Part shown: positions 3,099 to 63,090 of the stretch, piece by piece | Numbering within the stretch: position 1 is the first letter of the stretch | How the letters are laid out: each line of letters opens with the position of its first letter | NCBI GenBank assembly: GCA_020137815.1 | Contig: CM035351.1 | Location: 9,914,896-9,978,895, forward strand | Source of the DNA: Hormiphora californensis | Taxonomy: Eukaryota > Animalia > Ctenophora | DNA: 64,000 nt | Direction of reading: 5' to 3' | Translations under genes and position numbers: made by a program | The notes under the pieces: generated by a model | Told to the model about the DNA's origin: nothing | What the model saw: the letters and a program-made list of their open reading frames with translations, nothing else | Databases searched by the model: none

Positions 3099-4668
3099 TT
3101 TTTTCCCTGCCCGGGTGATCTTTTTATCACGCACGTGCTAAAAAGATCATTCAGGGTTTAGAAATCAGCAGATTGTGTAGTTAACTAAAAGTGTCCGTCC
3201 GTCCGTCACGGACAACGCCTAACGACAAGTCTGCTCCTTCATAAAACTTTCATCTCACGCTTCGTTGATTCAACAAAGGAAATGATTAACACACATTGTG
3301 GCGCGAAATTACTCGCTCATAGCACTTACAGCCATGCTATGAAGCCATGCTATGAAGTGATAGAACGTCTTCCAAGCATGAAACTACTGTCACACTAGTG
3401 ACTCGAGTTGAGATGCGGTTAAAGTTGAAGCACTTGGTAACCAACTGGGGTCTCCTAAGCAACTGACTTGGTTGCCAATTGCCATAGCAACTGTCCTGGT
3501 TACCATAGGAATTGCTTTGGTTACCATAGCAACTGCCTTTGGTTACCTTAGCAACTTACCTAGTTACCTTAGTAACCAACATCGCATCAGCCAAAAAATG
3601 CTCTCTGAGCACAAAATTCATCAGGAAATCAAGTTTTGAAGCTTATTCATCAATTTTAAATCCATTTGGCAGGGAAACACCGCATTATGAATACATAATG
3701 CAATAATTCTTGTTTCACTGGTAAATCTCTCGAGGTGAGGGGGAGGGGCTGCCGGAAGAATCTCATGCCTCATTTGCGATTTTTAGGGTAGCTGAGATTT
3801 TGAGATTGAGGCAAAAGACGTGAGATTTATGAGATTTTTGAGACAAATCTGCGATTTTTCCGAATAAAGTCACACATTTTTCTCAAAAATTTCAAAGAAA
3901 GGAAGAATTATTGCATTATGTATTCATAATGCGGTGTTTCCCTGCCACAAATGGATTTAAAATTGATGAATAAGCTTCAAAACTGGATTTCCTGATGAAT
4001 TTCGTGCTCAAAGAGCATTTTTTGGCTGATGCGATGTTGGTTACTAAGGTAAATAGGTTAGTTGCTATGGTAACCAAAGTAGTTGCTATAGTAACCCGGA
4101 CAGTTGCTATGGCTTAGGAGACCCCAGTTGGTTACCAAGTGCTTCAACTTTAACCGCATCTCAACTTGAGTCACTAGTGTGACAGTAGTTTCATACTTGG
4201 AAGACGTTCAACCACTTCATGGCATGGCTGTAGGGCGCCCAAAGTGATTTCAGGTGGTAGTGGGAAGTGCTATCAGCGAGTAATTGTGCGCCACAATGTG
4301 TGTCAATCATTTCCTTTGTTGAATCAACAAAGAGTGGGATGAAATTTTTATGAAGGAGCAGACTTGTTGTTAGGCGTTGTCCGTGACGGACGGACGGACG
4401 GACACATTTTGTTAACCCACACGATCTGCTGATTTCTAAACCCTGAAATACAAAGTACATAATACAAGATTTAATAATCGTTTATTAAAACTTTTATTAC
4501 TTGGTAATCAGCTCCAGAATCTTGATCCTGTCGAGCGCTTTACCAGAAATCCCTTTATAAGCAAACATAAACCCTGAAATATCTTTTTAGCACGTGCGTG
4601 CTTAAAACATCATCCGGGGTAATGCCCTTCACCGGGTGAATGCCCTTCACCCGGGCAGGGAAAAAAAT
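3099..4668. mobile_element. Inverted pair of a Helentron/DINE-1-like non-autonomous element
   Basis: 3099-3711 is the reverse complement of 3904-4668; (GTCC)n tracts at ~3194 and ~4388; terminal hairpin gcattatgaatacataatgc; related ends at ~1219 and 4737-5065. Confidence 0.6.
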
Positions 4669-5067
4669 TTCATAGAAAGGAAAAATGTCCATTCTAAAGT
4701 TTGGGATAGAAACAATCCTTGCGTTTTTTAACCAACAAGAATTATTGCATTATGTGTTCATAATGCGGTGTTTCCCTGCCACAAATGGTGCTAAATTGAT
4801 GACTAAGCTCCAAAACTCGATTTCCCGATGAATTTTGCACTCTAAGAGCCATTTTTTGGCTGATACGCTGTTAGTTGCTATGGTATCCAAGTGGTAGCTA
4901 TGGTAATCAAAATTCAAAGCACTTGCTATGATAAGTAAGGTAGTTGCTTAGGAGACCCTGGTTGGTTACCAAGTGCTTCAACTTTTATACCTTCGCTCAT
5001 CTTAACTCCAGTCACTTGCAATTATTGTGTGATAGTAGTTTCAAGCTTGGAAGACTTGCTACCACAT

Positions 5068-5285
5068 CATGGTACCACTGCATGATACGGCAACCCCAAA
5101 AACGGGACACACTGCATTATACGGCAACCCCAAAAAGGCAACCCAAAAACGGGGCGCCACTGCACTATACGGCAACCCCAAAAACGGGGCACCACTGCAT
5201 TATACGGCAACCACAAAAAAGGGGCACCACTGCATTATACGGCAACCCCGAAAAAAAACACACGGGGCACCACTGCATTATACGG
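5068..5285 (+). repeat. ~36-bp minisatellite (ggggcaccactgcattatacggcaaccccaaaaac), resumes at 9644-9727 after the LTR insertion
   Basis: ~6 copies before and ~2 after the LTR element. Confidence 0.9.
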
Positions 5286-5800
5286 TGTTATATCATGATT
5301 CCTTCACATTGACTTCATCATGTACGCGGAGAGATTACATCATGCCTGGGAACCACAGGATGGCTACGATGATATTGGATACCTCGAGGAGTACCTACGT
5401 CAAGCGGAATCGATAAGATGTTTTACCTACCATCTTTGATATGACTACGAGGAGCACCTACGTCAAGCAAGAACGGGAAGATGTTTAACATACGATCTTT
5501 GTTATGTCTATCGTGATGACAGAGGAAACAAGGCACTGCACTATATAACCGAGATGAAGAACTGGGAAGAGGACCGATCCGCTACTACCACACAGCATCC
5601 CTATAGCGGAACAAAGACCCCTACCTCCCCTGCACCGCCAAGCTATCCTCCTTGACTCTCCCACGGATACCCGATTGTAATAGCAAGATTACCTTCACCT
5701 TGCTATAACCTGTAGTTGTCTCGTGTACCCTATTCCCTAAACCAGTAAACTTTACTCACCCACACGTCACGGGTCACCACACAACCACCTTAACAAGTGG

Positions 5801-5817
5801 TCCCGTATCAGGCTCCA
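5801..5817 (-). other. Primer-binding site TGGAGCCTGATACGGGA following the minus-strand LTR
   Basis: Complement UCCCGU-AUCAGGC-U-CCA fits tRNA 3'-end geometry (C61, 5-nt T-stem strand, 7-nt acceptor strand, discriminator, CCA); Thr-like acceptor is an inference. Confidence 0.7.
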
Positions 5818-7031
5818 CTTGTTAAGGTGGTTGTGTGGTGACGTGTGGGTGAGTAAAGTTTACTGGTTTAGGGAATAGGGTACACGAGACAACTACAGGT
5901 TATAGCAAGGTGAAGGTAATCTTGCTATTACAATCGGGTATCCGTGGGAGAGTCAAGGAGGATAGCTTGGCGGTGCAGGGGAGGTAGGGGTCTTTGTTCC
6001 GCTATAGGGATGCTGTGTGGTAGTAGCGGATCGGTCCTCTTCCCAGTTCTTCATCTCGGTTATATAGTGCAGTGCCTTGTTTCCTCTGTCATCACGATAG
6101 ACATAACAAAGATCGTATGTTAAACATCTTCCCGTTCTTGCTTGACGTAGGTGCTCCTCGTAGTCATATCAAAGATGGTAGGTAAAACATCTTATCGATT
6201 CCGCTTGACGTAGGTACTCCTCGAGGTATCCAATATCATCGTAGCCATCCTGTGGTTCCCAGGCATGATGTAATCTCTCCGCGTACATGATGAAGTCAAT
6301 GTGAAGGAATCATGATATAACATATCCCCCTTGTTTATTAAAAGGTAATTACATTGACCTTTGGGCTATGTAATTTCCTTATCAGTGTAAGGTACATATT
6401 TTATGTATTCATTCATACAACGATGATTTTTTATTGGTGACAATGTTTGCCCCTACATTTGTAACCTTTTCGCATATATGCCGATTCGAGGTTGAGAAAT
6501 GCATTCATACATGGCAGAGTGAGATTTATTAACAATTATTGATGTAGATTCAAACCAGGGTTTTGGTTGTGACGACATTTTTAACCTGTTGTATACATCG
6601 TATGAGGTTGATAAAATTCACTCATACAAGATGGCAGAGTGAGAAGTTAGGGGTTGGCTTATTCCATATTATAAAAACTTCGTACGAATACTACCATAGT
6701 TATAACAGCCATGTGCATATTTGTAGGTGCAAATATTTAATATAGTTCCAAGCGAAGATGTTGGAATTTAAGCGTGTGATCCAGTAGTGTATACTGTATG
6801 TGATCGTTTTGTGTTCATAACACTCTTCTTGTCCATCTTCCGAATACGTGAAAATGGTCGAATCCTCAATCCATATCACTAGCCTGCCAATCCATCCCTG
6901 GGTGATAAACCAGTTTTTCGATCCCTCAGCCGAAAATTAGATGTGTCCAAAGATCGGGGATAACTATTTGGTTCCAATGGGTAGGGTGGGTTATCAATGA
7001 CAGGACGCTAGGGCAACCTTGCAGTAGCGAT

Positions 7032-8117
7032 TTATTCTTTCCTGGAGATCTTGTCCTCTATCTTTCTCCTTTCTTTCTCTTGCCGGTACTTCCTCAGCTC
7101 TTCCTTCTCCTTGGGTGAGTACATAGGATCAGCTAGCCCAAGCTGGCTCAGCGGATCTTCTTTCCCCTTCGGTTTCCTTAACGGCCTTCCTGGCACGTTG
7201 AATTCTGGTTCGTCCATAACTTGATTCATAGACGTCGTAGGTGGTTCTTGCTCTATTACCACCGCTGGTACCACCGTTGGTTGAGTTTCCACGTCTGGCT
7301 GACTCTCAACTGTAGGCTGTATTTCCTCTGTAACTGGTGCTGGAGTCTGCTCATCTGTTACCGTAGTGTCCAAAGCATCCAGAAACTCATCAGCTCTACT
7401 CTCATTTCCTGATTCCGCTTCCACTGGCGCCGGAATCACTGGTTGTGTTGGGGGTGGCTTGTTCTTGCCTTTACTTGGTTCTCCTCCCAGTGTTTCGTAG
7501 TTCAATCTCTCCGTAGTCTTCCTCTTTCTCACTGACTTCCGCGTCGGTGCTGCGGGTGTAGAACTCTCTACTGGAGTAGGAATAATGTTCTGCCGGGTGT
7601 GGGCAGTAGATTGATCCTCTGTAGGTCGTGTAGGTTCCTCTGGTACTGGCGTTGTTTCCCTTTGTAGATTTGGACGATGTGTGTGGTTGATAGGTTGATT
7701 CCTTGTAGGTGTAGGGAAATCGTCATCATCACTATCCGAGTCAGAGTCCGTGGTATCTACGCCTGATGGTGCTGAAGTAGGAGCTGTTTCATAGTCGCTT
7801 TCCTTCGGAGTGTCCTCAGACTGGAGATTCGTGTTTTTCTCAGTTGGAGAAAATCTGTTGGTTTTGTAATGCTTCATTTTCTCTATGTTGACTAGTTTTT
7901 GTGAGTCACCAATTTTCACCATGTAGTTGTGGTTAGATAATTTTTCTGTGATCAGGTATGGACCTTCAAATCGTGGTAGTGCGATGTCACCAGCTTGTTC
8001 AACTGCTCCATATGCAGATCTGGCCTTTTCTTTGATAGTGTTGCAAAACTGTGTAATGTTTTCGTTTGGCCCTTGTTTCAAGTTCATGAGCTGCTGTTTC
8101 ATGGATGCTTTGGACAC
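7032..8117 (-). pseudogene. Deleted gag/integrase-C-terminus fusion ORF with long acidic Pro/Thr tail
   Basis: LMNLKQGPNENITQF (gag QG.E motif) joined to LPRFEGPYLITEKLSNHNYMV (Gypsy integrase GPY/F motif); no RT, RNase H or integrase core. Confidence 0.8.
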
Positions 8118-10452
8118 TACGGTAACAGATGAGCAGACTCCAGCACCAGTTACAGAGGAAATACAGCCTACAGTTGAGAGTCAGCCAGACGTGGAAACTC
8201 AACCAGCGGTGGTAATAGAGCAAGAACCACCTACGACGTCTATGAATCAAGTTATGGACGAACCAGAATTCAACGTGCCAGGAAGGCCGTTAAGGAAACC
8301 GAAGGGGAAAGAAGATCCGCTGAGCCAGCTTGGGCTAGCTGATCCTATGTACTCACCCAAGGAGAAGGAAGAGCTGAGGAAGTACCGGCAAGAGAAAGAA
8401 AGGAGAAAGATAGAGGACAAGATCTCCAGGAAAGAATAAATCGCTACTGCAAGGTTGCCCTAGCGTCCTGTCATCGATAACCCACCCTACCTATTGGAAC
8501 CAAATAGTTATCCCCGATCTTTGGACACATCTAATTTTCGGCTAAGGGATCAAAAAACTGGTTTATCACCCAGGGATGGATTGGCAGGCCAGTGATATGG
8601 ATTGAGGATTTGACCATTTAACGTATGATGGACAAGAAGAGTGTTATGAACACAAACCGATCACATACAGTATACACTACTGGATCACACGCTTAAACTC
8701 CAACACCTTCGCTTGGAACTATATTAAATATTTGCACCTACAAATATGCACATGGCTGTTATAACTATGGTAGTATTCGTACGAAGTTTTTATAATATGG
8801 AATAAGCCAACCCCTAACTTCTCACTCTGCCATCTTGTATGAGTGAATTTTGTCAGCCTCATACGATGTATACAACAGGTTAAAAATGTCGTCACAACCA
8901 AAACCCTGGTTTGAATCTACATCAATAATTGTTAATAAATCTCACTCTGCCATGTATGAATGCATTTCTCAACCTCGAATCGGCATATATGCGAAAAGGT
9001 TACAAATGGAGGGCAAACATTGTCACCAATAAAAAATCATCGTTGTATGAATGAATACATAAAATATGTACCTTACACTGATAAGGAAATTACATAGCCC
9101 AAAGGTCAATGTAATTACCTTTTAATAAACAAGGGGGATATGTTATATCATGATTCCTTCACATTGACTTCATCATGTACGCGGAGAGATTACATCATGC
9201 CTGGGAACCACAGGATGGCTACGATGATATTGGATACCTCGAGGAGTACCTACGTCAAGCGGAATCGATAAGATGTTTTACCTACCATCTTTGATATGAC
9301 TACGAGGAGCACCTACGTCAAGCAAGAACGGGAAGATGTTTAACATACGATCTTTGTTATGTCTATCGTGATGACAGAGGAAACAAGGCACTGCACTATA
9401 TAACCGAGATGAAGAACTGGGAAGAGGACCGATCCGCTACTACCACACAGCATCCCTATAGCGGAACAAAGACCCCTACCTCCCCTGCACCGCCAAGCTA
9501 TCCTCCTTGACTCTCCCACGGATACCCGATTGTAATAGCAAGATTACCTTCACCTTGCTATAACCTGTAGTTGTCTCGTGTACCCTATTCCCTAAACCAG
9601 TAAACTTTACTCACCCACACGTCACCACACAACCACCTTAACAACGGCAACCCCAAAAACGGGGCACCACTGTCTCACGCGGCAACCCCAATAACGTGGT
9701 ACCACTGCATTATATACGGCAACCCCAGCAAAACTGATCACGAAGTCTGGATTATTCCGATGAGTCACTAAAGGCTACCCCCCCCCCTCCCTAAAAATCG
9801 ATCCGTCACAGGTAGCCTCAACAACGGCCAACTCGCAAAGCCCTGAGCATAACAGGTCGGATCTGAAAGCAAACGGTATGCAACAGTACTGGAAACGGTA
9901 ATCATAACTGCAAAGTCGCCAGCCACTAGCGATATGGTATTGGTACCCCTATTCTAGATGGAACCCAATCACAAACAGTGCCATATGGGCCGACTCCTTC
10001 AAATGCAAATGCATACGAACGACTCGGTGGACCGACCCCTACCGCTATACCCAAACCACAAGGTATTAGCCATAACAAGGCAATGCGGGAGTGAAAAAAT
10101 AGCAAGACGCTCTAGTTATGGAAACGACGCTATCGTTCGGCAACTACCTACCCCTGGGGCAACCCAGGAACGTAAGACTGACACGCTTGCACTTGTGTTG
10201 GTGCATCCGCTGTCGTAGGTAGGATTTATGCAAAAACTTATGAAGCAGGATCGCCTGTCGGTCTGCATCTCTAAGGTCATTGCTGTCGGAGGGGACAACG
10301 GGGAAACCCGTTTGAACACAGAGGGCGGTTTTGATCTGGGGGTGTGGGTCGGCGCCTGGGTTGTCGGTGAGTGGGCGCCAAGGGGAGATCCTGCGGAAAT
10401 AAGGGCTAGCTGATCCCCAACGTCAACAGTGTGGATGGAAGTACGGAGGTTC

Positions 10453-12750: not shown

Positions 12751-13861
12751 GGGGTGTGTTATTTTTTCAATTCCTAATTTAATTCAAAATTTTACTTGGT
12801 ACAGTCGGACCCCGATTTACCGGGCCCCGATTTACCGGAACCCCGATTTACCGGGAGGATAAACTTCCCCCGATATAGGAAATTAACGGTATTTGACCCC
12901 AATTTACCGGGCACCCCGATTTACCGGGGTCCGACTGTATTGGGTTAAATGAGCTCCTACGATCATTCTAAAACATTTTATCACAAATTTTTGGCTCTAC
13001 CATGGCCCAAATATGTTGGCACGAGCTATGCCCATATATGGGCATATTCATATCAAAAAGTCTGTTTTAGGGCGTTATTTCGAACAAAATACACATATCA
13101 ATCGTCTCGTGACAACTTATACGACTGTTACTTTCAGTTTGAGCCTTCAGATATCCACTTTATGAACAAAAATAAAAGTTTTTCTCCCTTTTTTTTCTTG
13201 CTAATTTTACCAACTTGCAGAATCGTGGGGACGAATTTTAATTTTTTTAAAGTTTTTTCTTGGTGGAAAGCAAATTTTGGTTGTAATCGACTAATTTTGG
13301 CCTGCGGAACACGATCCCGTTCAAGAAAAAGATCTCAAAATTTAAGAACATGTCCAAAATGAACATTCTTTGTCAAAAATGAACATTTTTTGTCAAAAAT
13401 GAACATTTTTAGGTCAAAAATGAACTTTAGCATCATTTAATGATGCATATCAATTCCTGTCAGTTTCGAGGTGCTGAACACGATCCTGAACATAAAAAGT
13501 TGATATCAAGAACATGTCAAAAACTGGTGAAAACCACACATATTTCCCTATTTTTACCATTTTTCGCGGCCCTGTAGTTGTTAGGATCATACCTACAGCC
13601 CTTCTTATACAATGGGGTGACGAGTGATTCTTTCCAAGGATAGCACTGATTCTGGAGACATTGGTTAAACAAGTTGGCTGTCGCCTCCATGACTTCTGTA
13701 CTGCTTGCTTTCAGGAACTCATTGGCAATTTGATCCTCAGCTACAGCTTTTCCGTCCTTGAGTCGCGATGCCAACGTAACTGACAAACACTATCTCGATT
13801 CTGTTTTGCTGATGTGATAGAAAATTGTCCATAGTTTCACATTAGCTAGATACTGAATGGA
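12751..13861 (-). mobile_element. Copy of the GGGTGTGCTATTT TIR element, interrupted by a MITE (12802-12937) and an RT fragment
   Basis: reverse complement of 23096-23886. Confidence 0.75.
13568..13775 (-). pseudogene. LINE reverse-transcriptase N-terminal fragment
   Basis: LKDGKAVAEDQIANEFLK...WKESLVTPLYKKGCRYDPNNYRA, typical non-LTR RT domain 0/1 motifs. Confidence 0.85.
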
Positions 13862-16348: not shown

Positions 16349-17992
16349 TACTTACTTGATACTTGGTACGGTCTCCTCAATCATTCGAGTGGCCGGCTCC
16401 AAGTATCCTCGCTCGTAATGACGTGAGCTGTCTCCACTCATTTCTGTTCTCTGCAGTGTTAGTAATTGCACGGAGAGACTGAGATTGACCCGTAGCGTCT
16501 CGATAATCATTCAGCACACAGGAGGACCAGGTTTTACGCGGTCTTCCTCTGGAACGTCTCCCATGACTAGGCACCCAGTGGTAGAGTTTATTGGGCACCC
16601 TACCCTCAGGCATTCTAATCAGGTGTCCAAACCAGCGGAGTCTCCCATTGCCAATGAACTTCGAGATTGGTTCTATCCCCGCCCTCTACAGTACCTCCCT
16701 GTTAGATACTCTCCTAAACCACTGTATTCTCAGGATTCTACGCAGGCACCGTTGATGGAACGCCTCCACCCGGCGATCTTGGACCTGAGTAGTTGTCCAG
16801 GCCTCACAACCATAGAGAAGAACTGTCAGAACAGCAGCTCTGTATATCCTGATCTTGGTACAGGTCCTGATGTTACGGTTGTACCAGATCCTACAAAGCA
16901 TACTGAATGCACTGTAAGCCTTCCCTATCCTGATACCAAGCTCCTTGTCGATGGTACCGTCAGAGGACAACGCCGATCCGAGATAGGTAAAACTGGAAAC
17001 CTGCTCAACCGGATTACCCTCCACAGAGATGCTGACCGTATCCGCCTCTGAAAATGGGCGCTGGCTAAGACCCTTTGAAAAAGCCACAACTTTGGTCTTC
17101 TTCGCATTAATCTTCAGACCAGCGTACCCTGCGTATTTTACCAGCAAATCTGTTGACTCCTGGAGCCCTTCCTCAGTATCATCCATTACAGCCATGTCAT
17201 CAGCATAGTCGAGATCCATGATCCATTCCCCACCCTCATCACTCTCAGCGCCGTGAAGAGTGAGACCCCTGGAGACAGTCTTGTTGGACTCAGCAAGCTG
17301 AGCCGCCCAGTTAATCACGATGTTGAAGACTGGTGGACCCTGAATGTCGCCCTGACCGGTACCACTGAGGACACTGAACCAGCTGGAGAGCTCCCCGTCA
17401 TGTTTCACTGCACTCATAGTACCGTCAAAGAATGCTCGAATTATCCGGACATACTTCTCTGGAAGACCATAATGGCGAAATGCGGCCCAGATAAAATCCC
17501 TGTTAATACAATCGAATGCTGATTTGAAGTCAATAAAGTTTATATACAACGGTACATTATATTCTATACACTGATGGATGATGGTACGGAGGGAATAAAT
17601 CTGATCCACACAGGACCGGTTACGTCTGAATCCACACTGATAATCTCGAAGTGCCAATTCAAGACCAGAAGACAACCTGTTCAGCATAATTATCTGGAAC
17701 AGCTTGGAAGTGGTAGATCGCAGAGTGATGCCCCTATTATTTGAGCACACACTGGCGTCACCCTTCTTGGGAATCACCGAGATGACACCCTTTAACCACT
17801 CCTCCGGGACCTTCTCCTCCCTCCAGACTCCACCAAACAGATCCACAAGGGGGCCAACAAGACCGGACGAGCCATACCGTAGCTGTTCGTTCGAGATCCC
17901 ATCAACGCCAGGACTCTTATGGTTTTTGAGCCTCTTCAGTGCCACTAAAACTTCTCCACGAGAAGGCGGAGGATCATCCTCACCAAGATCCT
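16349..17992 (-). mobile_element. 5'-truncated RTE-clade LINE (RT ORF 16686-17945, frameshifted C-terminus to 16377)
   Basis: KSPGVDGI, FIDFKSAFD, GQGDIQGP, YADD, YLG, LLYGCEAW, GRPRKTW; short 3'UTR with AAGT-type repeat tail. Confidence 0.92.
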
Positions 17993-20900
17993 CACTTAGA
18001 GCTTAGATTTTGATACCAGCTGATAGAGGATCACTAAATTTTCCGTTTGGCTGGCGGTTGGCTGGCACCACGTGGGATTAGGGGTTTAGGTCGTCGTGGG
18101 AGGTCGACATTGGTCGCGTTCGATCGGGCTCGATGAGGTGATCAAAAGCTAGTGGGCCAGACCTTGGCCCCACCCCGTTCTTGGCTTATTGGGCTTTTTC
18201 GGTTTCCCGCCAAAATATTTTCCCGCCATATATATGCTTTATTTTTTTGCCCCTGCACTGCCACTGCACATTTTTTTAATTGCTTATAATTAATTTGATA
18301 ATCAATTTTGAATATTCCCACTTTTTGTAGACCTTTCTATATGCTTTAACTACATTACTGCAAAATTTTAGGCCGTTATTTATAGCAGAACGGAAAATAT
18401 TTTCAAATGCTCAGGGGCAATGCTCAGGGGCACCAGAAAAATGTCCATTTTTTAATTGCTTATAATTAATTGGATAATTAATTTTGAATATTCCCACCTT
18501 TTGTAGACCTTTCTATATGCTTGAAGAGCATTCCTACAAAGTTTCAAGTCGATATTTCAAGCAGATCGGGAGATAATTGCTGCTCAGGTGCCCCTGGGCC
18601 ACTTTTGTTAGTGCGAGGGCAATTTTAAAATTTTAATTGCTTATAATCAATTAATTAAGTAAAAAATCAAAAATCAGGCTCCTTGGTGACTCTTAGTTAT
18701 ACCACTAGAACATGCCTACAAAGTTTTAGATCGATATGTCAAACAGTGTGGCCACAGTTTGAATTTTAAAATTGCCCAGGGGCAGTATTTTCAAATGCTC
18801 GGGGGCAATGTTCAGGGGCACCAGAAAATGTCCATTTTTGCATGCCTATAACTCATTGATTACTTAATTTTGACTATTCTAACTTTTTTGTAGATCATTT
18901 TTTATGCTTGAAGAGCATTCCTACAAAGTTTCAAGTCGATATTTCAAGCAGATCGGGAGATAATTTCGGCTCAGGGGCAATGCCCAGGGGACAGAACACC
19001 CCATGCTCAGGGGCACGGTGCAGGGGCTACTTTTTAATTACATATAATTAATTTATTAGGCAAAAAATCAAAAATCTGGCCACGTTATGACACGTAGTTA
19101 TACTACTAGAACACGCCTACAAAATTTCAGGTCGATATCTCAAAAAATTTGGCCACAATCACTGCCTGAAATTTGCCCCCCCCCCCCCCCCCCCCCGAAA
19201 AAAAGACCTACGTTTGTATATATGATCGCAAAAGGCAAGCTTCCCCTCGTTCGACCCGAAGTTGGGAGATTCGTCGAAACAGCAACCTTCAGGCTGTTAA
19301 AATATTTTTTGATGCGCGGCGGCCTGTTTATTATAGTAGGGTCGGTTGTGGGAAGTTGGGTCTGGAATTTTAAATTTGACTTTCTGATATGATTAGGGAC
19401 TCTATAAAAAGTCCAAAGTACCATCCCACAGGTCTCTACCACCCCCGGCGCGGTTCACTAATTAGTCGTAATTATGTAATTTATGACGTTATCGCCAATT
19501 AGCACTAATAATGCCAGTTCCTGATCACTTAGAGCTTAGATTTTGATACCAGCTGATAGAGGATCACTAAATTTTCCGTTTGGCTGGCGGTTGGCTGGCA
19601 CCACGTGGGATTAGGGGTTTAGGTCGTCGTGGGAGGTCGACCGGTCGACATTGGTCGCGTTCGATCGGGCTCGATGAGGTGATCAAAAGCTAGTGGGCCA
19701 GACCTTGGCCCCACCCCGTTCTTGGCTTATTGGGCTTTTTCGGTTTCCCGCCAAAATATTTTCCCGCCATATATATGCTTTATTTTTTTGCCCCTGCACT
19801 GCCACTGCACATTTTTTTAATTGCTTATAATTAACTTGATAATCAATTTTGAATATTCCCACTTTTTGTAGACCTTTCTATATGCTTGAACTACATTACT
19901 GCAAAATTTTAGGCCGTTATTTATAGCAGAACGGAAAATATTTTCAAATGCTCAGGGGCAATGCTCAGGGGCACCAGAAAAATGTCCATTTTTTAATTGC
20001 TTATAATTAACTAGAAAGCCCATTAAAGTCCCTCACCCCCCCCCCCACCGTCCCCATGTCTCTCTCCCCCTCTTACTCTTGATATCTCCATGTCGGGGTA
20101 AAGAATACGGAGGTTGGTAGAGTGGTAGAGCGCCATGTTGATAAACATCAATGGAAATCCCGCTGATTAACATGTAGAATCAGGTGATAAAGATCCGTAT
20201 AATTGTAGCTGTGTAGAGAATCAACGGGGTACGTAGGTAGAAAGGCTTTGGCAATCATGGCGGCCCCAGTAGTAGATCCCAAAACACCACAGGAACAACA
20301 CAGGAACACGCAACAAACAACCAACAACATGCACGTGCAGTATCCCCCCTCCAATACCCCTTCCAAGGCACCTCCTTGGCAACCCCCCTCTATTTGCACG
20401 TGATGATAGGTCATACTCCTCCTCATCACGACGTTCATTTGCAAATTATAATCTCTACTAGAAAGCCCATTGAATTCCTACAATTGCCCCCACCCCCACC
20501 CGTCTCTATGTCCCCCACCCTCTTACTCTTCGACTCTCCATGTCGGGGTAAAGAATACGGAGATTTGTAGTGCTAGAGCGCCGGTGATAAACATCAAGGG
20601 AAATCCCGCTGAATAACATGTAGAATCAGGTGGTAAAGATCCGTAGAATTGTAGCTGTGTAGAGAATCAACGGGGTACGTAGGTAGAAAGGCTTTGGCAA
20701 TCATGGCGACCTCAGCAGTAGATCCCAAAACACCAACAACAACAACCACAGGAACACGCAACAAACAAACAATAACATGCACGTGCAGTATCCCACCTCC
20801 AATACCCCTCCCAGGGCACCTCCTTGGCAACCCCCTCCATTTGCACGTGTGGATAGGTCATCATACTCATCACGCCACGCATTTGCAAATTATAATAAGG

Positions 20901-22024: not shown

Positions 22025-22726
22025 CTTTTGGATTTGGTGCAGGGGCAAATTTTTTTTCTTCGTTTTTTCTGTTTTCTTCGGGTCGGAGGTGCAGTGCCTG
22101 CCGGCACCTAAATTATATTCTCCGGGTCGGATGGCGAGCTGCCACGCAAAAACGGTGATAGTTGTGTGAAAACAAACTGCGGGAGTGTGCTGGATTAATT
22201 CCTTCCTAACTGATGGCTTTGTTTTAAAATTAAATTTCAAAAGTTCATTTTTCATGAATGAACATTGCTGCCGTTCATTCATGAATTCTGAAATATAGTT
22301 TACCTTGAGTAAGTAACTTTTCTTTAGCTCGCAATTATCTTTCCATTGAGCACCATAAAACTCAAATTGAAGCACCAGGTCACATGACAGTTGAGAAAAT
22401 GAACATGCATGATTTTGGCTCTTTTTGCGACTTTCAATCGGCTGTATCACCGCTACCTTACCTTCAATCTTTTTGAAACTTTGGGTGAACATTGGATAAG
22501 CAAAGATCTTTGTTCACAAGAAAAATCAAGGTCAAAACTCAAAGTTCATTTTTAAGTTTTGGTAGTTCATTCCACTCATTCAGGAACCAACAACCCTAAA
22601 GTGATGGAAAAGTGTTGGATTTTGTTTGGCCAATGTCCTGCAATGACAGAGAGGTGTAGTAACGTGTTTCCGGGCTAGTTAGTGGGTGTCCACTGTCCAT
22701 GTGATTTTGGTGATACCTGACACCTT

Positions 22727-23056
22727 CACTGAGCAATAATCAAGGGATTTCCTCGAATTCAAGCATGTGATTCGGGTCTACTGCGATTGGTATCGTGCAG
22801 CAATCTTGAGAGATCACATAGCACCTCAAAAATGATGATAAGTTCAATAAATTGAGTTGATTTATGATCAATAAGATTAAAACCGATGCCACATTGAACT
22901 CAACGACCATTTTCGATCATAAATCAACTCACTTCATTGAACTAACCATCATTTTCGAGGGCTATGAGATCTCTTAACATTGCTGCACGATACCAATCGC
23001 AGAAAACCCGAATCACATGCTTGAATTCGTGAAAATCCCTTGATTATTGCTCAGTG
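22727..23056. mobile_element. Palindromic CACTG...CAGTG element
   Basis: cactgagcaataatcaagggattt ... aaatcccttgattattgctcagtg. Confidence 0.7.
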
Positions 23057-23063
23057 AAGGTTA

Positions 23064-23886
23064 GGGTGTGCTATTTCAAATTTTTTTCGACTAGGCCATT
23101 CAGTATCTATAGCTAATGTGAAACTATGGACAATTCTCTATCACATCAGCAAAACAGAATCTGGATAGTGTTTGTCAGTTAAATTGGGATCGCGATTTAA
23201 AAAGTGTAGTTTTAACCGAAAAATGGTAAAAACAGGAAAATATGTGTGGTTTTCACCAGTTTTTGACATGTTCTTGATATAAACTTTTTATGGTCAGGGT
23301 TGTGTTCAGCACCTCGAAACTGACAGAATTGATATGCATCATTAAACAATGCTAAAGTTCATTTTTGACCTAAAAATGTTCATTTTTGACAAAAAATGTT
23401 CATTTTTGGCAAAAAATGTTCGTTTTGGACATGTTCTTCAATTTTGAGAGCTTTTTCGTGAACGGGATCGTGTTCCGCAGGCCAAAATTAGTCGATTACA
23501 ACCGAAATTTGCTTTCCACCAAGAAAAAACTAAAAAAATTAAAATTCGTCCCCACGATTCTGCAAGTTGGTAAAATTAGCAAAAAAAGGGAGGAAATTTT
23601 TATTTTTGTTCATAAAGTGGATTTCTGAAGGCTCAAACTCAAAATAACAATTGTATAAGTTGTCACGAGACGATTGCTATGTGTGTTTTGTTCGAAACAA
23701 CGCCCTAAAACAGACTTTTTGAAATTAATATGCCCATATATGGGCATAGCTCGTGCCAACGTAATTGGGCCATGTTAGCGCCAAAACTTTATGATAAAAT
23801 GTTTTAGAATGATCGTAGGAGCTCATTTAACCCGATACCAAGTGAAATTTTGAATTAAATTAGGCATTTGAAAAAATAGCACACCT
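23064..23886 (+). mobile_element. Short-TIR non-autonomous DNA transposon (Harbinger-like)
   Basis: tta|gggtgtgctattt ... aaatagcacacct|tca; second copy at 12751. Confidence 0.65.
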
Positions 23887-24318
23887 TCACTGAAGGTGTC
23901 AGGTATCACCAAGATCACATGGACACCCACTAACTAGCCCGGAAACACGTTACTACACCTCTCTGTCATTGCAGGACATTGGCCAAACAAAATCCAACAC
24001 TTTTCCATCACTTTAGGGTTGTTGGTTCCTGAATGAGTGGAATGAACTACCAAAACTTAAAAATGAACTTTGAGTTTTGACCTTGATTTTTCTTGTGAGC
24101 AAAGATCTTTGCTTATCCAATGTTCACCCAAAGTTTCAAAAAGATTGAAGGTAAGGTAGCGGTGATACAGCCGATTGAAAGTCGCAAAAAGAGCCAAAAT
24201 CATGCATGTTCATTTTCTCAACTGTCATGTGACCTGGTGCTTCAATTTGAGTTTTATGGTGTTCAATGGAAAGATAATTGCGAGCCAAAGAAAAGTTACT
24301 TACTCAAGGTAAACAATA

Positions 24319-47664: not shown

Positions 47665-48884
47665 TAATTCGATTCGATCTTCAAGCGATCAAAAAGTTTT
47701 CGATTCGATCTTTGGGCGATCAAAAAATATCGATTCTATCTGGTATGGATCTTTGAGCTCAAAATACTACTAGACGGTGAATGGCGAAGGCATCAATATA
47801 ATACAATATGCACATATGTGTATAAACCTCAAAGTGATCGGCAAAGAATAACAATTAGCAGCCCAATGAGTAATTGTCGTTGAGTAAATCGAGTTGTAAC
47901 AGTTTTGACTTTTGCTTGCAGTTACACATAATGCTTGTACATAGTTACACACTATATGAAACCCGATAGCTGATTTATCAGTCGTTTGAACATTTTCGCG
48001 CGCATCGATAACTGCGAGCTGGGGATTTTACCACCTGCTCGCTATTTATCAGACCAGTACCCTTTTCACGCGTTTCTTTCATTTCATAAAATGGTGTGGA
48101 ATTTCCAAGTAATGAAAATGCGTGTAAACACACAGTTCTGTCAATAACAGAGAGGGGAACACATCTGCAACACTTTTCAATGTTCTCTCTCTCAGTCTCT
48201 CATCAAGAGGCAAAATAATCACATTCCATTCGTTTTCTCTCTCTCATTCTCTCTTTTACGTTCAATATCTCTCATGTGTGTATTGGCCCCATCTTGCTCT
48301 CTCTTACTCAAATATGTAAGGAACAGTTGCAAACTAGGTGCCAGTTAGTCTACACACACAGTTGTGGGAACGTCTTTTGACTATTGCCAGCAGTCATTGT
48401 GGTTTCACTTGTGTTGTGTCTCTATGCGTGTAATAACATCGGTTTCATAAATATGAAGGTTTGTTAGCCTATCGCGTTATAGGTTTAAATCCACCTCCCT
48501 CACCCTCGGACTAGATGCCCTCGGGATCGGCGTCGGGATTTTTAAACCAGTTAATCGCCCTGCCGGCGATTTCAACTCTGATTGGCTGTCCCCAGCTTGC
48601 GCTGTGAACAGCCAACTTGATAACGCGCCAGTCTACAAACGTTCATAGTTCATTTAGCGTATAATGTAGATTCGTTCTGGGCAGGTTTTAGAACACATGG
48701 ATAATTGGAATTGTCTTCTGAACGAAATTCGGATAGGGGGAAGGGGGTCTGAGAAATTCGGACAGGCTTGGACAAAGGGGAGGGAGGGGGGGGGGGTAAA
48801 AAAGGACTAAAATCATGGACCTCCTTTTTGAATCGCCCCTAACATTACTACAACTCATTATAGGTGTATTACATTGCACTGGCA

Positions 48885-50021
48885 ATGTTCAATGAAACAA
48901 TAACGGAATTTACAACATCGTGGTTTGATTTCTTTAACAGAACCGAGGGACCTACTACTGAAGAAGCCAACACTGATGAAGTCTTCCCGTTTGACTGTCT
49001 CCCGGGAGGAGCTGCTGTGATTTGTGTTGTAGTGGGAATCATACTAAACACTGCTGTCCTCCCATACTTCATTTCCAAAATCAAACAAAGCAGAACTCTG
49101 TCCAATTTGTTTTATACCATCATCTCAGCGACAGATCTGGTGGTTTCCATTCTAACAATATTTTACACAACCACTCTCTTCACCCAACAGCCAGGTGCCT
49201 TCAAATCAGTTAAATTCTGTACTGCCTGGTCTGTCCTCTGGGGTGTTTTCACTAAACTCACAATCCTCCTTGTCTCTCTCCTGTCAATCTATAGGACAAT
49301 CCTGATACTCGACCCTCTCCAGAGCACCATCTCCTTCCGACCCTCTCGTACCTTCCTTGGGGTAGTTGCTGTGGGCAGTGCAGCGGTGTTTTTAGCAGCA
49401 GAAACGGTGCCGTTATGGTTCAGTGGACAGATAATGTGGTATTACGATTGGTTTCGACATAGGTGTGAGTGGTATGAAGTAGGCCCACACTGTGAGGTTC
49501 ATGTACCATTCGCCGGTATTTATGTGTGGAATGCGGTTACCATTGGTCTCCCACTGCCCGTGGTTACCATAGCAACAAGTCTGTCCATATATGGTCTGGT
49601 AGGGAGATCCTCCCTAAACCATTACCGGGAAAGCAACACAGTTCTTCTTTTCTCTGCGGTCTACATGGTCCTCAATATTCCCGTGTTTGTGTACCATGTT
49701 GTCATGGTGATAGAATTCTCCACGGGGTGGGAGGCCAAGTTGCTCGATTTTGATCATCCTAATTACTACTTTTTCACATTTGTGGAGCTGATTGTGGTGT
49801 CACTTAACAGCGCCGCTAATCCCATGATATATCTGGTGAGAATGACAGAGTTGAGGAGATTTATGAAGGAGCAGTACTTTGGAAGGTTGAGGAGACTGGT
49901 GACAGCAGATCATCATATCACCATGGTATCACGGAATGCTACAAAGTCTACCAGTGTTACTGCAGCTGGTGGTGGAGCGGGGGAGAGTTCAAATAATTAT
50001 GTTGCCAGTTCCCGAATATAA
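48885..50021 (+). CDS. Intronless class A (rhodopsin-like) orphan GPCR, 378 aa
   Basis: 7 hydrophobic segments; GIILN (TM1), SATDL (TM2), C..W and SIYRT (TM3), NSAANPMIY (TM7); N-glycosylation sequons NET and NRT; ATG at 48885. Confidence 0.92.
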   Translation: MFNETITEFTTSWFDFFNRTEGPTTEEANTDEVFPFDCLPGGAAVICVVVGIILNTAVLPYFISKIKQSRTLSNLFYTIISATDLVVSILTIFYTTTLFTQQPGAFKSVKFCTAWSVLWGVFTKLTILLVSLLSIYRTILILDPLQSTISFRPSRTFLGVVAVGSAAVFLAAETVPLWFSGQIMWYYDWFRHRCEWYEVGPHCEVHVPFAGIYVWNAVTIGLPLPVVTIATSLSIYGLVGRSSLNHYRESNTVLLFSAVYMVLNIPVFVYHVVMVIEFSTGWEAKLLDFDHPNYYFFTFVELIVVSLNSAANPMIYLVRMTELRRFMKEQYFGRLRRLVTADHHITMVSRNATKSTSVTAAGGGAGESSNNYVASSRI

Positions 50022-56644: not shown

Positions 56645-59600
56645 AAATAAATCGGGGTGTTCCGAGAGACTGATCCTAAACTGAGCCAATACACACAGCT
56701 AGAGCGGAGAGTCACCGTCATGGTGTGCACTATCACCAGGGTCACATATACAGTCGATGGGGTTGACTATACTCTCAACGCATCTAGCCTCTGCCAACAT
56801 GTCATGGTGTTGCACTGCCAGGAACCCTCCAACTCCGATTCCTTGTTTAACTAGCCGTACAGCAAGGATCTCGGCTGGATTCGTCTCAGACTAGGCACAT
56901 ATTCCAACACGATAGTAGCAGGAGAGATCAACACTTATACCAAGCACACAGGGTAGAAACAATCCTTGTGTTCTGGATAAGATAACATTTTTCTCTAGGT
57001 AGTGTGTATCGGACATCAGTAGGCCCCATTATAATTGGTATTTAACACAGTCAAACTCGAGAGAGTACAATGTTATTGATACTTGATTGATAAATCGGGG
57101 TGTTCCGAGAGACTGATCCTAAACTGAGCCAACTACACACGCTAGAGCGGAGAGTCACCGTCATGGTGTGCACTATCACCAGGGTCACAATATACAGTCG
57201 ATGGGGGTTGACTAAAACTCTCAACGCATCTAGCCTCTGCCAACATGTCATGGTGTTGCACTGCACGGAACCCTCCAACTCCGATTCCTTGTTTAACTAG
57301 CGTACAGCAAGGATCTCGGCTGGATCGTCTCAGACTAGGCACATATTCCAACACGATAGTAGCAGGAGAGATCAACACTTATACCAGCACACAGGGTAGA
57401 AACAATCCTTGTGTTCTGGATAAGATAACATTTTTCCTAGGTAGTGTGTATCGGACATCAGTAGGCCCCATTATAATTGGTATTTAACACAGTCAACTCG
57501 GAGAAGTACAATGTTATTGATACTTGATTGATAAATCGGGGTGTTCCGAGAGACTGATCCTAAACTGAGCCAATACACACAGCTAGAGCGGAGAGTCACC
57601 GTCATGGTGTGCACTATCACCAGGGTCACAATATACAGTCGATGGGGTTGACTATAACTCTCAACGCATCTAGCCTCTGCCAACATGTCATGGTGTTGCA
57701 CTGCACGGAAACCTCCAACTCCGATTCCTTGTTTAACTAGCCGTACAGCAAGGATCTCGGCTGGATTCGTCTCAGACTAGGCACATATTCCAACACGATA
57801 GTAGCAGGAGAGATCAACACTTATACCAAGCACACAGGGTAGAAACAATCTGTGTTCGGATAAGATAACATTTTTCTCTAGGTAGTGTGTATCGGACATC
57901 AGTAGGCCCATTATAATTGGTATTTAACACAGTCAACTCGGAGAAGTACAATGTTATTGATACTTGATTGATAAATCGGGGTGGTTCCGAGAGACTGATC
58001 CTAAACTGAGGCAATACACACAGCTAGAGCGGAGAGTCACCGTATGGTGTGCACTATCACCAGGGTCACAATATACAGTCGATGGGGGGTGACTATAACT
58101 CTCAAAGCATCTAGCCTCTGACAACAAGTCATGGTCTTGCACTGCATGGAACCCTCCAGCTCCTATTCCTTGTTTAACTAACCGTACAGCAAGGATCTCG
58201 GCTGGATTCGTCTCAGACTAGGCACATATTCCAACACGATAGTAGCAGGAGAGATCAAACTATACCAAGCACACAGGGTAGAAACAATCCTTGTGTTCTG
58301 GATAAGATAACATTTCTCTAGGTAGTGTGTATCGGACATCAGTAGGCCCCATTTAATTGGTATTTAACACAGTCACTCGGAGAAGTACAATGTTATTGAT
58401 ACTTGATTGATAAATCGGGGTGTTCCGAGAGACTGATCCTAAACTGAGCCAATACACACAGCTAGAGCGGAGAGTCACCGTCATGGTGTGCACTATCACC
58501 AGGGTCACAATATACAGTCGATGGGGTTGACTATAACTCTCAACGCATCTAGCCTCTGCCAACATGTCATGGTTGCACTGCACGGAACCCTCAACTCCGA
58601 TTCCTTGTTAACTAGCCGTACAGCAAGGATCTCGGCTGGATTCGTCTCAGACTAGGCACAATTCCAACACGATAGTAGCAGGAGAGATCAACACTTATAC
58701 CAAGCACACAGGGTAGAAACAATCCTTGTGTTCTGGATAAGATAACATTTTCTTAGGTAGTGTGTATCGGACATCAGGAGGCCCCATTATAATTGGTATT
58801 TAAACAGTCAACTCGGAGAAGTACAATGTTATTGATACTTGATTGTAAATCGGGGTGTTCCGAGAGACTGATCCTAACTGAGCCAATACACACAGCTAGA
58901 GCGGAGAGTCACCGTCATGGTGTTGCACTATCACCAGGGTCACAATAACAGTCGATGGGGGTTGACTATAACTCTCAACGCATCTAGCCTCTGCCAACAG
59001 TCTGGTGTTGCACTGCACGGAACCCTCCAACTCCGATTCCTTGTTTAACTAGCCGTACAGCAAGGATCTCGGCTGGATTCGTTTCAGACTAGAGCAATAT
59101 TCCAACACGATAGTAGCAGGAGAGATCACACTTATACCAAGCACACAGGGTAGAAACAATCTTGTGTTCTGGATAAGATAACATTTTTTCTTAGGTAGTG
59201 TGTATCGGACATCAGTAGGCCCCATTATAATGGTATTTAACAACAGTCAACTGGAGAAGTACAATGTTATTGATACTGATTGATAAATCGGGGTGTTCCG
59301 AGAGAGACGATCCTAAACTGTTCTACCCTGTGTGCTTGGTATAAGTGTTGATCTATCCTGCTACTATCGTTGGAATATGTGCTAGTCTGAGACGATCCAG
59401 CGAGATCCTTGCTGTACGCTATTAACACGGAATCGGAGTGGAGGGTTCCGTGCAGTGAACACCATGACAGTTGCAGAGGCTAGATGCGTGAGAGTTATAG
59501 CAACCCCATCGACTGTATAGTGACCCTGGTGATAGTGCACACCATGACGGGACTCTCGCTCAGCTGTGTGTATGGCTCGTTAGGATCAGTCTCTCGGAAC

Positions 59601-62600
59601 ACCCCGATTATCACAAGGATCAATAACATGTACTCTCCAGTTGACTGTGTTTAAATACATTATAATGGGGCCACTGATGTCGATACACACTACCTAGAGA
59701 AAAAGTTATCTTATCCAGAACACAAGGAGTTTCTACCCTGGTGCTTGGTATAAGTGTTGATCCCTGCTACTATATGTGTTGAATATGGCCTAGTCTGAGA
59801 CGAATCCAGCCGAGATCTTGCTGTACGGCTAGTTAAACAAGAACGGAGTTGGAGGTCCGTGCACGTGCAACACCATGACATGTGTGGCAGAGGCAGATGC
59901 GTTGAGAGTTATAGTCAACCCCATCGACTGTATATTGTGACCTGGTGATAGTGCACACCATGACGGTGACTCTCCGCTCTGCTGTGTGTATTGGCTCAGT
60001 TTAGGATCAGTCTCTCGGAACACCCCGATTTATCAATCAAGTATCATAACATTGTACTTCTCCGAGTTGACTGTGTTAAATACCAATTATAATGGGGCCT
60101 ACTGATGTCCGATACACACTACCTAGAGAAAAATGGTATCTTATCCAGAACACAAGGATTGTTTCTACCCTGTGGCTTGGTATAAGTGTTGATCTCTCCT
60201 GTACTATCGTGTTGGAATATGTGCCTAGTCTGAGACGAATCCAGCCGAGATCTTGCTGTACGGCTAGTTAAACAAGGAATCGGAGTTGGAGGGTTCGTGC
60301 AGTGCAACACCATGACATGTTGGCAGAGGCTAGATGCGTTGAGAGTTATAGTCAACCCCCCATCGACTGTATATTGTGACCCTGGTGATAGTGCACACCA
60401 TGACGGTGACTCTCCGCTCTAGCGTGTGTATTGGCTCAGTTTAGGATCAGTCTCTCGGAACACCCGATTTATCAATCAAGTATCAATAACATTGTACTTC
60501 TCCGAGTTGACTGTGTAAATACCAATTATAATGGGGCCTACTGATGTCCGATACACACTAACTAGAGAAAAATGTTATCTTATCCAGAACACAAGGATTG
60601 TTTCTACCCTGGTGCTTGGTATAAGTGTTGATCTCTCCTGCTACTATCGTGGTTGGAATATGTGCCTAGTCTGAGACGAATCCAGCCGAGATCCTTGCTG
60701 TACGGCAGTTAAACAAGGAATCGGAGTTGGAGGGTTCGTCAGTGCATGCAAACCATGACATGTTGGCAGAGGCTAGATCGTGAGAGTTATAGTCAACCCC
60801 CATCGACTGTTATTGTGACCCTGGTGATAGTGCACACCATGACGGTGACTCTCCGCTCTAGCTGTGTGTATTGGCTCAGTTAGGATCAGTCTCTCGGAAC
60901 ACCCCGATTTTCAATCAAGTATCAATAACATTGTACTCTCCGAGTTGACTGTGTTAAATACCAATATAATGGGGCCCTACTGATGTCCGATACACACATA
61001 CCTAGAGAAAAATGTTATCTATCCAGAACACAAGGATTGTTTCTGACCTGTGTGCTTGGTATCAGTGTTGATCTTTCTGCTTCTATCGTGTGGAATATGT
61101 GCCTAGTCTGAGACGAATCCAGCCGAGATCCTTGCTGTACGGCTAGTTAAACAAGGAATCGGAGTTGGAGGGTTCCGTGCAGTGCAACACATGAATGTTG
61201 GAGAGGCTAGATGCGTTGAGAGTTATAGTCAACCCCATCGACTGTATATTGTGACCTGGTGATAGTGCACACCATGACGGTGACTCCGCTCTAGCTGTGT
61301 GTATTGGCTCAGTTTAGGATCAGGCTCTCGGAACACCCCGATTATCAATCAAGTTAATAACATTGTATTCTCCGAGTTGACTGTGTAAATACCATTATAA
61401 TGGGGCCTACTGATGTCCGATACACACTACCTAGAGAAAAATGTTATCTTATCCAGAACACAAGGATGTTTCTACCCTGTGTGCTGGTATAAGTGTTGAT
61501 CTCTCCTGCTACTATCGTGTTGGAATAGGGCCTAGTCTGAGACGAATCCAGCGAGATCCTGCTGTACGGCTAGTTAAACAAGGAATCGGAGTTGGAGGGT
61601 TCCGTGCAGTGCAAACCATGACATGTTGGCAGAGGCTAGAGCGTTGAGAGTTATAGTCAACCCCCATCGACTGTATATTGTGACCTGGTGATAGTGCACA
61701 CATGACGGTGACTCTCCGCTCTAGCTGTGTGTATTGGCTCAGTTAGGACAGTCTCTGGAACACCCCGATATCAATCAAGTATCAAAACATTGTACTTCTC
61801 CGAGTTGACTGTGTAAATACCAATATAATGGGCCTACTGATGTCCGATACACACTACCTAGAGAAAAATGTATTTATCCAGAACACAAGGATTGTTTCTA
61901 CCCTGTGTGCTTGGTATAAGTGTTGATCTCTCCTGCTACTATCGTGTTGGAATATGTGCCTAGTCTGAGACGAATCCAGCCGAGATCCTTGCTGTAGGCT
62001 AGTTAAACAAGGAATCGGAGTTGGAGGGTTCCGTGCAGTGCAACACCATGACATGTTGGCAGAGGCTAGATGCGTGAGAGTTATAGTCAACCCCCATCGA
62101 CTGTATTGTGACCCTGGTGATAGTGCACACCATGACGGTGACTCTCCGCTCAGCTGTGTGTATTGGCTCAGTTTAGGATCAGTCTCTCGGAACACCCCGA
62201 TTTATCAATCAAGTATCAATAACATTTACTTCTCCGAGTTGACTGTGTTAAATACCAATTATAATGGGGCCTACTGATGTCCGATACACACTACCTAGAG
62301 AAAATGTATCTTATCCAGAACACAAGGATTGTTTCTACCCTGTGTGCTTGGTATAAGTGTTGATCTCTCCTGCTACTATCGTGTTGGAATATGTGCCTAG
62401 TTGAGACGAATCCAGCCGAGATCCTTGCTGTACGGCTAGTTAAACAAGGAATCGGAGTTGGAGGGTTCCGTGCAGTGCAACACCATGACATGTTGGCAGA
62501 GGCTAGATGCGTTGAGAGTATAGTCAACCCCCATCGACTGTATATTGTGACCTGGTGATAGTGCACACCATGACGGTGACTCTCCGCTCTAGCTGTGTGT

Positions 62601-62980
62601 ATTGGCTCAGGTTAGGATCAGTCTCTCGGAACACCCCGATTTATCAATCAAGTATCAATAAACATGTACTTCTCCGAGTTGACTGTGTTAAATACCAATT
62701 ATAATGGGGCCTACTGATGTCCGATACACAACCTAGAGAAAAATGTTATTCTATCCAGAACACAAGGATTGTTTCTACCCTGTGTGCTTGGTATAAGTGT
62801 TGATCTCTCCTGCTACTATCGTGTTGGAATATGTGCCTAGTCTGAGACGAATCCAGCCGAGATCCTTGCTGTACGGCTAGTAAACAAGGAATCGGAGTTG
62901 GAGGGTTCCGTGCAGTGCAACACCATGCATGTTGGCAGAGGCTAGATGCGTTGAGAGTTATAGTCAACCCCCATCGACTG
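56645..62980. mobile_element. TSD-flanked multimeric insertion of a ~444-nt structured non-coding unit (~6 copies, inversion at ~59320, ~8.3 copies)
   Basis: AATCACCGTTGTC at 56632-56644 and 62981-62993; period ~440-444; copies differ mostly by single-base indels. Confidence 0.9.
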
Positions 62981-63090
62981 AATCACCGTTGTCCATTTTT
63001 CTTTAATCTCATCAATTCTATCCTTCCTTTCATTTAAAAAATCACCCATTCACCCATTCAAGAGCCTGTTATTTACCTACCTCACTTCAG

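Follow-up and report, generated by a model that had tools for sequence, protein, structure and literature searches.

How can a single retrotransposon insertion hold three long terminal repeats (LTRs), the middle one reversed, within one target-site duplication (TSD)? The question is raised by a stretch of 64,000 nucleotides from the ctenophore Hormiphora californensis (assembly GCA_020137815.1, contig CM035351.1, positions 9,914,896 to 9,978,895 of the forward strand), called the window below and the reference for all coordinates, in which an initial annotation, made from the sequence alone, had described a Gypsy derivative of this layout and taken it for a fossil intermediate of reverse transcription. 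Every part that it named stands at the place it gave in the assembled sequence, for which the anatomy is established: the structure is real, far beyond what chance would produce, and is a single, young, rearranged insertion, dead and likely of Ty3/Gypsy type. As to its origin we lean, with slightly better than even confidence, towards strand transfers that went astray while two co-packaged RNAs were being reverse-transcribed, followed by integration in the usual way.

A single insertion with three LTRs

The LTRs are oriented +, -, +, and all three lie within a single 4-bp ACGG duplication (Table 1). These four letters are in register with the 35-bp minisatellite that served as target, whose units start with the same letters, and they are for that reason a real TSD; removal of the element together with one ACGG restores an ordinary minisatellite unit. 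All 503 letters of LTR2 recur in LTR3, LTR1 departs from them by one 7-nt insertion and no substitution, and the polypurine tracts (PPTs) before LTR2 and LTR3 are identical. A single-cycle origin is favoured because there is one in-register TSD, the outer ends are intact and no substitution separates the three LTRs. One TSD with near-identical LTRs is also the published mark of a single cycle (PMC1950507; published work is cited throughout for parts of the papers named), which supports the annotation's view that the product was integrated normally.

The middle LTR has, as had been claimed, a PPT before it and a primer-binding site (PBS) after it. The inverted arms of the two overlapping hairpins that had been described are likewise present: LTR1 and LTR2, turned towards one another with 24 nt between them, make up the short arms, of about 0.5 kb, and 5820-7381 with 8102-9643 the long ones, of about 1.55 kb. 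The U3 region of every LTR contains two 63-nt copies, 81% alike (5385-5510, 6098-6223, 9240-9365), and contigs of the family show deletions of 60-89 nt within the LTR.

Table 1. The three-LTR insertion and its target, by position in the window (UTR, untranslated region; ORF, open reading frame).
Feature	Position	Strand	Remarks
35-bp minisatellite, left part (target)	5087..5281	+	units start at 5087, 5121, 5169, 5204, 5239
ACGG TSD, left copy	5282..5285	+	4 bp
LTR1, TG...CA	5286..5795	+	510 nt; TATA-like box at offset 257, AGTAAA at offset 459
Insertion of 7 nt, in LTR1 only	~5766..5772	+	LTR offset 481-487; 5-nt duplication plus 2 extra letters; 23 nt from LTR1 end
Joint 1, hairpin apex	5796..5819	.	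AG-TGG, 14-nt loop, CCA-CT
PBS	5801..5817	-	17 nt (18 with base 5800); 2 nt from LTR2; complementary to tRNA positions 76-60
LTR2, TG...CA	5820..6322	-	503 nt; identical to LTR3
PPT of LTR2	6323..6337	-	limits approximate
3' UTR, allele set A	6338..7031	-	
Integrase C-terminus and tail	7032..7978	-	FEGPY motif; acidic, proline-rich tail of ~290 aa, open to stop
gag remnant	7978..8107	-	fused in frame to integrase end through internal deletion; 2-nt overlap 7978-7979
Joint 2, imperfect gag/tail inverted homology	8088..8107	.	exact 6-nt overlap 8102-8107
Partial tail ORF, allele set B	8102..8439	+	
3' UTR, allele set B	8440..9125	+	equals inverted arm from 9012 onward
PPT of LTR3	9126..9140	+	limits approximate
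LTR3, TG...CA	9141..9643	+	503 nt
ACGG TSD, right copy	9644..9647	+	minisatellite then continues to ~9727

Two sets of alleles in the inverted arms

The long arms are 97.7% identical by blastn over 1579 columns. They are separated by 17 differing events, made up of 13 substitutions (10 of them transitions) and 4 insertions or deletions, all of which fall at 8202-9011, so that the last 632 of the 1542 nt of the arm hold none (P ~1e-4 under a uniform spread). Decay after insertion was rejected as the origin of the differences from this distribution along the arms. Across four sequencing runs (at most three samples, from two studies) the family is deep and variable, and at 5 of the 17 events the allele of each arm was found in deep contigs of different runs (depth 165-1220): at 6608 and 6612 the left allele is in X1-3 (depth 336) and the right in X2-12 (166), at 6758 and 6766 the left is in X4 (962) and the right in X2-12 and X6-31 (402), and at 6807 the left is in X4 (704) and the right in X2 and X6 (1031). 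Ten further events appear with one allele only, and two are uncovered. The tally drew on 11 of the 32 contig pieces listed, out of 4498, and on 40 of 155 difference rows, and the depth of a contig is not a copy number.

Since both alleles stand in deep contigs for those five events, the arm differences look, at moderate confidence, like variants of the family rather than decay at the locus. They point to two templates for the UTR and tail, with the last 129 nt and the LTR drawn from a single source. One contig, X2-12, has the right-arm alleles at 5 sites and the left-arm alleles at 5 events; it was considered as a mosaic family member and not counted, a shared stretch of 30 nt being enough to permit a switch in the assembly graph.

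The two joints

The loop of joint 1 is closed symmetrically by TGG/CCA, so the LTR to which the PBS belongs depends on the orientation of the 14 nt between. The annotation had counted a PBS of 17 nt, and that run is there, although base 5800 can be counted with the PBS or with the arm of the hairpin and the PBS-like run may thus be 18. On the minus strand it reproduces 12 of 12 letters of the PBS of a Mnemiopsis Gypsy element, both lying 2 nt from the LTR (PMC13524379 supplementary file 1); as to tRNA species, the published table assigns the closest 12-mer to the type 'others'. Numbered as a standard tRNA end, the PBS spans positions 76-60, and position 61 is a C; the base that follows it could be 59, and position 58 is not A. 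In HIV-1 (human immunodeficiency virus type 1), 1-methyladenosine at tRNA position 58 (m1A58) halts plus-strand synthesis (PMC8599865), and an end at position 60/59 would fit the stop at m1A58 that had been proposed, a plausible reading. It would fit equally well a fork switch at the 3-bp interrupted inverted repeat TGG/CCA, from which identical letters result provided that the family leader goes on with CCA.

At joint 2, a gag contig without the internal deletion (X6-30) matches the window up to 8107, from which it follows that 8102-8107 is common to gag and tail. The 20 nt that precede the overlap, aligned with the tail's own upstream letters, reach an anchored score of 15, attained by 0 of 600 random inverted pairs (maximum 12). 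Contigs end at 8107 (X6-30) and 7979 (X1-6), in coincidence with joints; this was not taken as proof of bridging, because contigs drop rare forms and X6-30 passes 7978. The stretch 9346-9516 lies outside contig cover, as the placement of reads on identical LTR copies explains.

A proposed origin in aberrant reverse transcription

The annotation had two cDNAs joined in opposite orientation by an aberrant transfer. Its two partners agree with arms that appear to derive from two family templates, whereas its single transfer is too few, at least two non-homologous joints being needed. In the route that we propose, the minus strand of one RNA (B) would stall and pair at joint 2 with the minus strand of the other (A), which it would then copy in the sense direction; the growing strand would next snap back on itself to copy its own UTR end, PPT, LTR and tRNA, and would finally be completed on strong-stop DNA that it had itself displaced. 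Biochemistry lends support, as Ty3 yields displaced, dead-end strong-stop DNAs with 12 nt copied from tRNA (PMC5371799) and the reverse transcriptase of HIV-1 can self-prime and switch at 2-nt complementarity (PMC4668388). The route would account for the two allele sets, the 632-nt identity, the succession PPT-LTR-PBS on one strand, the end point of the PBS, the three equal LTRs and the integrable ends, and it draws support from arms that show two templates upstream and one downstream, as a snap-back step predicts.

Several points weigh against it. We infer every step of the route, which was fitted after the fact, and one step would need priming on 1-3 nt. Copying from the tRNA primer is unproven, Ty3 copies 12 nt of its tRNA as against 17-18 here (PMC5371799), and joint 1 has just the geometry that a fork would leave on switching at an interrupted inverted repeat. 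Among the 32 contig pieces none bridges joint 1, joint 2 or the join of gag to integrase, and 12 of the 17 arm events lack one or both alleles in the listed rows, in which, moreover, depth does not stand for copy number. Finally, the 632-nt identity could also come from gene conversion between the arms or from two near-identical family members. A far more ambitious version of the same origin would make the locus a chromosomal fossil of a Gypsy dead end, in which a DNA copy of the tRNA primer was cut short at m1A58 and a self-copied, two-RNA cDNA was rescued as an integrable three-LTR palindrome, such products being a built-in, one-step route to family-silencing hairpin loci in animals; taken as a whole, this is unlikely.

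Host rearrangement and other explanations

Could the host have rebuilt the element instead? Rearrangement after insertion, with an ordinary two-LTR copy remade at a stalled fork or break, is possible, if rather unlikely. Synthesis would switch at TGG/CCA in the PBS, copy the LTR backwards, move by LTR homology into a 3' end, take a different member of the family as template in reverse and come back to the resident tail at the homology of 20 nt; a variant would start from a direct three-LTR tandem, later subjected to one inversion and two deletions. Such an event would keep the TSD and the outer ends, and both joints are short inverted homologies, as this origin would have them. Inversion junctions in yeast use interrupted inverted repeats of 2-14 bp, the 14-nt spacer of joint 1 has the junction geometry of origin-dependent inverted-repeat amplification (ODIRA; PMC10766183). 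Of the repeats that joints of this type need in the parent, the exact 6-nt overlap of joint 2 stands in the undeleted member X6-30, and that of joint 1 would require a leader with CCA after the PBS. The 7-nt insertion near the hairpin apex would suit later cruciform repair, and the window holds another inverted array (56647-62983). A switch within the element would, however, give identical arms, yet two allele sets are seen, so that the rearrangement must invade a second locus; and since the last 632 nt match the resident copy, it must also return to resident sequence or be followed by gene conversion. Nor is the inverted piece, of 2.3 kb, part of a plain triplication, for LTR2 leads into a PPT and not into flank, and a break at the end of the PBS picks at most about one in 100 of the places along the element, an estimate made after the fact.

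A different course of reverse transcription, a variant of the favoured reading whose confidence was counted separately, appears improbable. Here displaced plus-strand strong-stop DNA would fold back at the PBS, prime itself in a minus-strand-like manner, jump to the 3' R of a second RNA, run to gag and join the stalled first minus strand at joint 2, after which a crossover between LTR1 and LTR2 would flip the loop together with the 7-nt scar. It is sparing in its demands (no more than a single fold-back, a normal R jump and joint 2), and the scar lies 17-23 nt past AGTAAA, about where the R/U5 border, itself inferred, would be expected. Against this, it requires the extra flip, and alone it leaves unexplained why LTR2 with 129 nt equals LTR3 while the UTRs differ.

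Slightly more improbable still is an artefact, whether from mis-joined copies of the family or from a long read that is chimeric and palindromic. Amplified DNA is known to yield inverted chimeric long reads, and the joints are without a bridging contig among the listed pieces. An artefact, though, would need to leave the TSD and both flanks in register, create two joints that compensate each other, place a PPT behind the LTR in the middle and draw on two allele sets, whereas a fold-back read gives identical arms; the homology at the joints, 3-20 nt, is too short for an overlap mis-join. A plain antisense nested insertion fails because there is no inner TSD, there are three LTRs only and LTR2 is followed by a PBS, and two independent insertions fail on the single TSD.

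Relation to known three-LTR and inverted elements

Complexes of three LTRs with flanking TSDs have been ascribed to template switching or to recombination before integration (PMC1950507; bioRxiv 10.1101/452573), and in rice 45 of 63 have TSDs. The present insertion resembles them in its three LTRs within one TSD and in the high similarity of the outer LTRs (0 substitutions, one 7-nt insertion or deletion), and departs from them in that they have two complete cores in the same direction and a shared middle LTR, while here the middle LTR and a core are inverted and both cores truncated, which is not the layout of Sabot and Schulman. The parts of PMC1950507 and of bioRxiv 10.1101/452573 that were covered hold no inverted case. 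Full-text literature searches for this layout, with subscription and older papers mostly outside their scope, returned no inverted three-LTR element ending at a PBS among the matches listed. Rearrangements of retroviral vectors are described in the older literature. If the reverse-transcription origin holds, the three-LTR complexes known so far gain an inverted member.

An inverted internal segment is shared with the inversion circles of auto-integration (PMC7197481) and with HIV-1 proviruses that have inversions, two classes of which each make up 1.3% of sequenced proviruses (PMC9278108); in these it is made before or without integration. The circles have two LTRs, joints at the LTR ends and no integration, in contrast to the third LTR and the joints at the PBS end and at the gag/tail homology found here. 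Strong-stop DNA of Ty3 (PMC5371799) offers a comparable displaced plus strand, which copies an LTR and a tRNA 3' end, but the Ty3 and HIV-1 products are free intermediates, with 12 nt in Ty3, and here 17-18 nt of unproven tRNA origin are fixed in a chromosome. ODIRA inverted triplications (PMC10766183) share the direct-inverted-direct order and joints at short interrupted inverted repeats, and differ in having one template, matching arms and flank after the inverted copy, as opposed to 17 arm differences and an inverted LTR that runs into a PPT. Mu killer (PMC3440606) and the antisense-nested EVADE (PMC11624286) resemble this locus as inverted duplications of a mobile element, from which hairpin RNA directed at the family could be made; the one is a rearranged DNA transposon and the other a nested insertion. 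LTR tandems in inverted order and junctions of internal inversions, described in Drosophila (PMC5932611), also come near and, like the circles, the HIV-1 proviruses and EVADE, differ in LTR number or joint position.

Family and coding remnants

The element has TG...CA LTRs with a PBS and a PPT inside a TSD of the 4-6 bp class, as expected of Ty3/Gypsy elements. Its minus-strand frame, P0001, encodes 358 aa without a start codon and found one match among 4619 candidates, P0002 (E 8.8e-48), in a protein search of longer proteins only. Residues 2-44 align with the gag of P0002 (26 of 43 identical) and the remainder with its integrase end and tail. The integrase end of P0001 gave E 0.0011 and 19.5 bits with PF22938, under the cut-off of 27; P0002 has rve above cut-off (41.7 bits), with weak protease matches, and in a PDB search it returned integrase cores only, with no indication of clade. 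In P0001, gag is thus joined in frame to the end of integrase, and protease, reverse transcriptase, RNase H and the integrase core are deleted. Contigs X6-29 and X6-30 depart from the window at 7978-7979, from which we conclude that undeleted family members exist.

After the integrase end come only tail, UTR and PPT. From tail to PPT there is no ORF of at least 80 aa besides the tail's own frames, and no env in either arm, unlike an errantivirus. The errantivirus_1 of Mnemiopsis (PMC13524379 supplementary file 1, row 430), one of 9 ctenophore rows in that table, has the identical 12-nt PBS 2 nt from its LTR and bears an F-type env, of which none was found here. Within the 64-kb window blastn found no further copy of the family, and no tRNA gene is present. 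An exact motif scan of metagenome contigs gave 0 matches, and protein-based locus scans gave only unconfirmed pattern matches, 185 of them in metagenome contigs and 6 in viral ones. P0002 has its parts in the order integrase, tail, second tail, gag, protease, and is a gene model drawn across copies, rearranged or in tandem, of another genome.

Mobility and predicted hairpin RNA

The copy should not move again, because RNA from the top strand would hold only 3 nt of the PBS, while RNA from the bottom strand, started in LTR2, would run into antisense LTR1 and flank. It is probably a non-propagating single case; a propagating three-LTR type was rejected, as the top strand has no usable PBS and one case only was seen. 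In structure, the locus has the long inverted duplication of an element that marks Mu killer-type hairpins. Folding of the RNA of 5286-6322 leaves 98% of bases paired, and a long hairpin RNA is predicted if the locus is transcribed; hairpins of 0.5 kb and 1.55 kb under LTR promoters could then start silencing of the family. Were the reverse-transcription origin true, the insertion would preserve in legible form the errors that an animal Gypsy element made in strand transfer; such steps are known chiefly from test systems in yeast and HIV. Its signature, an LTR, a hairpin at the PBS and an inverted LTR followed by a PPT, can be searched for and could be misread by annotation that relies on direct LTR pairs. 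The weight of all this is modest: one dead copy, by an unproven route.

Other features of the window

Directly left of the target minisatellite, 3110-5083 contains inverted and direct repeats nested in one another, their internal units 21 bp long, like a foldback element or a miniature inverted-repeat transposable element, and at 4900-5241 each of the four runs is very deep. Another large inverted structure is a satellite array at 56647-62983, with units of 439-441 bp whose direction flips at 59320/59321 (6.1 copies, then 8.5 inverted, 91-95% alike). Two inverted pairs, 22294-22732 with 23887-24318 (439 nt, 97%) and 12937-13566 with 23217-23838 (630 nt, 93%), are likely transposon ends or copies. 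On the minus strand, 16686-18002 is a 438-aa open frame for a non-LTR reverse transcriptase (RVT_1, 96 bits; DUF6451 slightly below cut-off), and on the plus strand 48864-50021 is an intronless frame for a seven-transmembrane receptor of the rhodopsin family (7tm_1, 34.8 bits).

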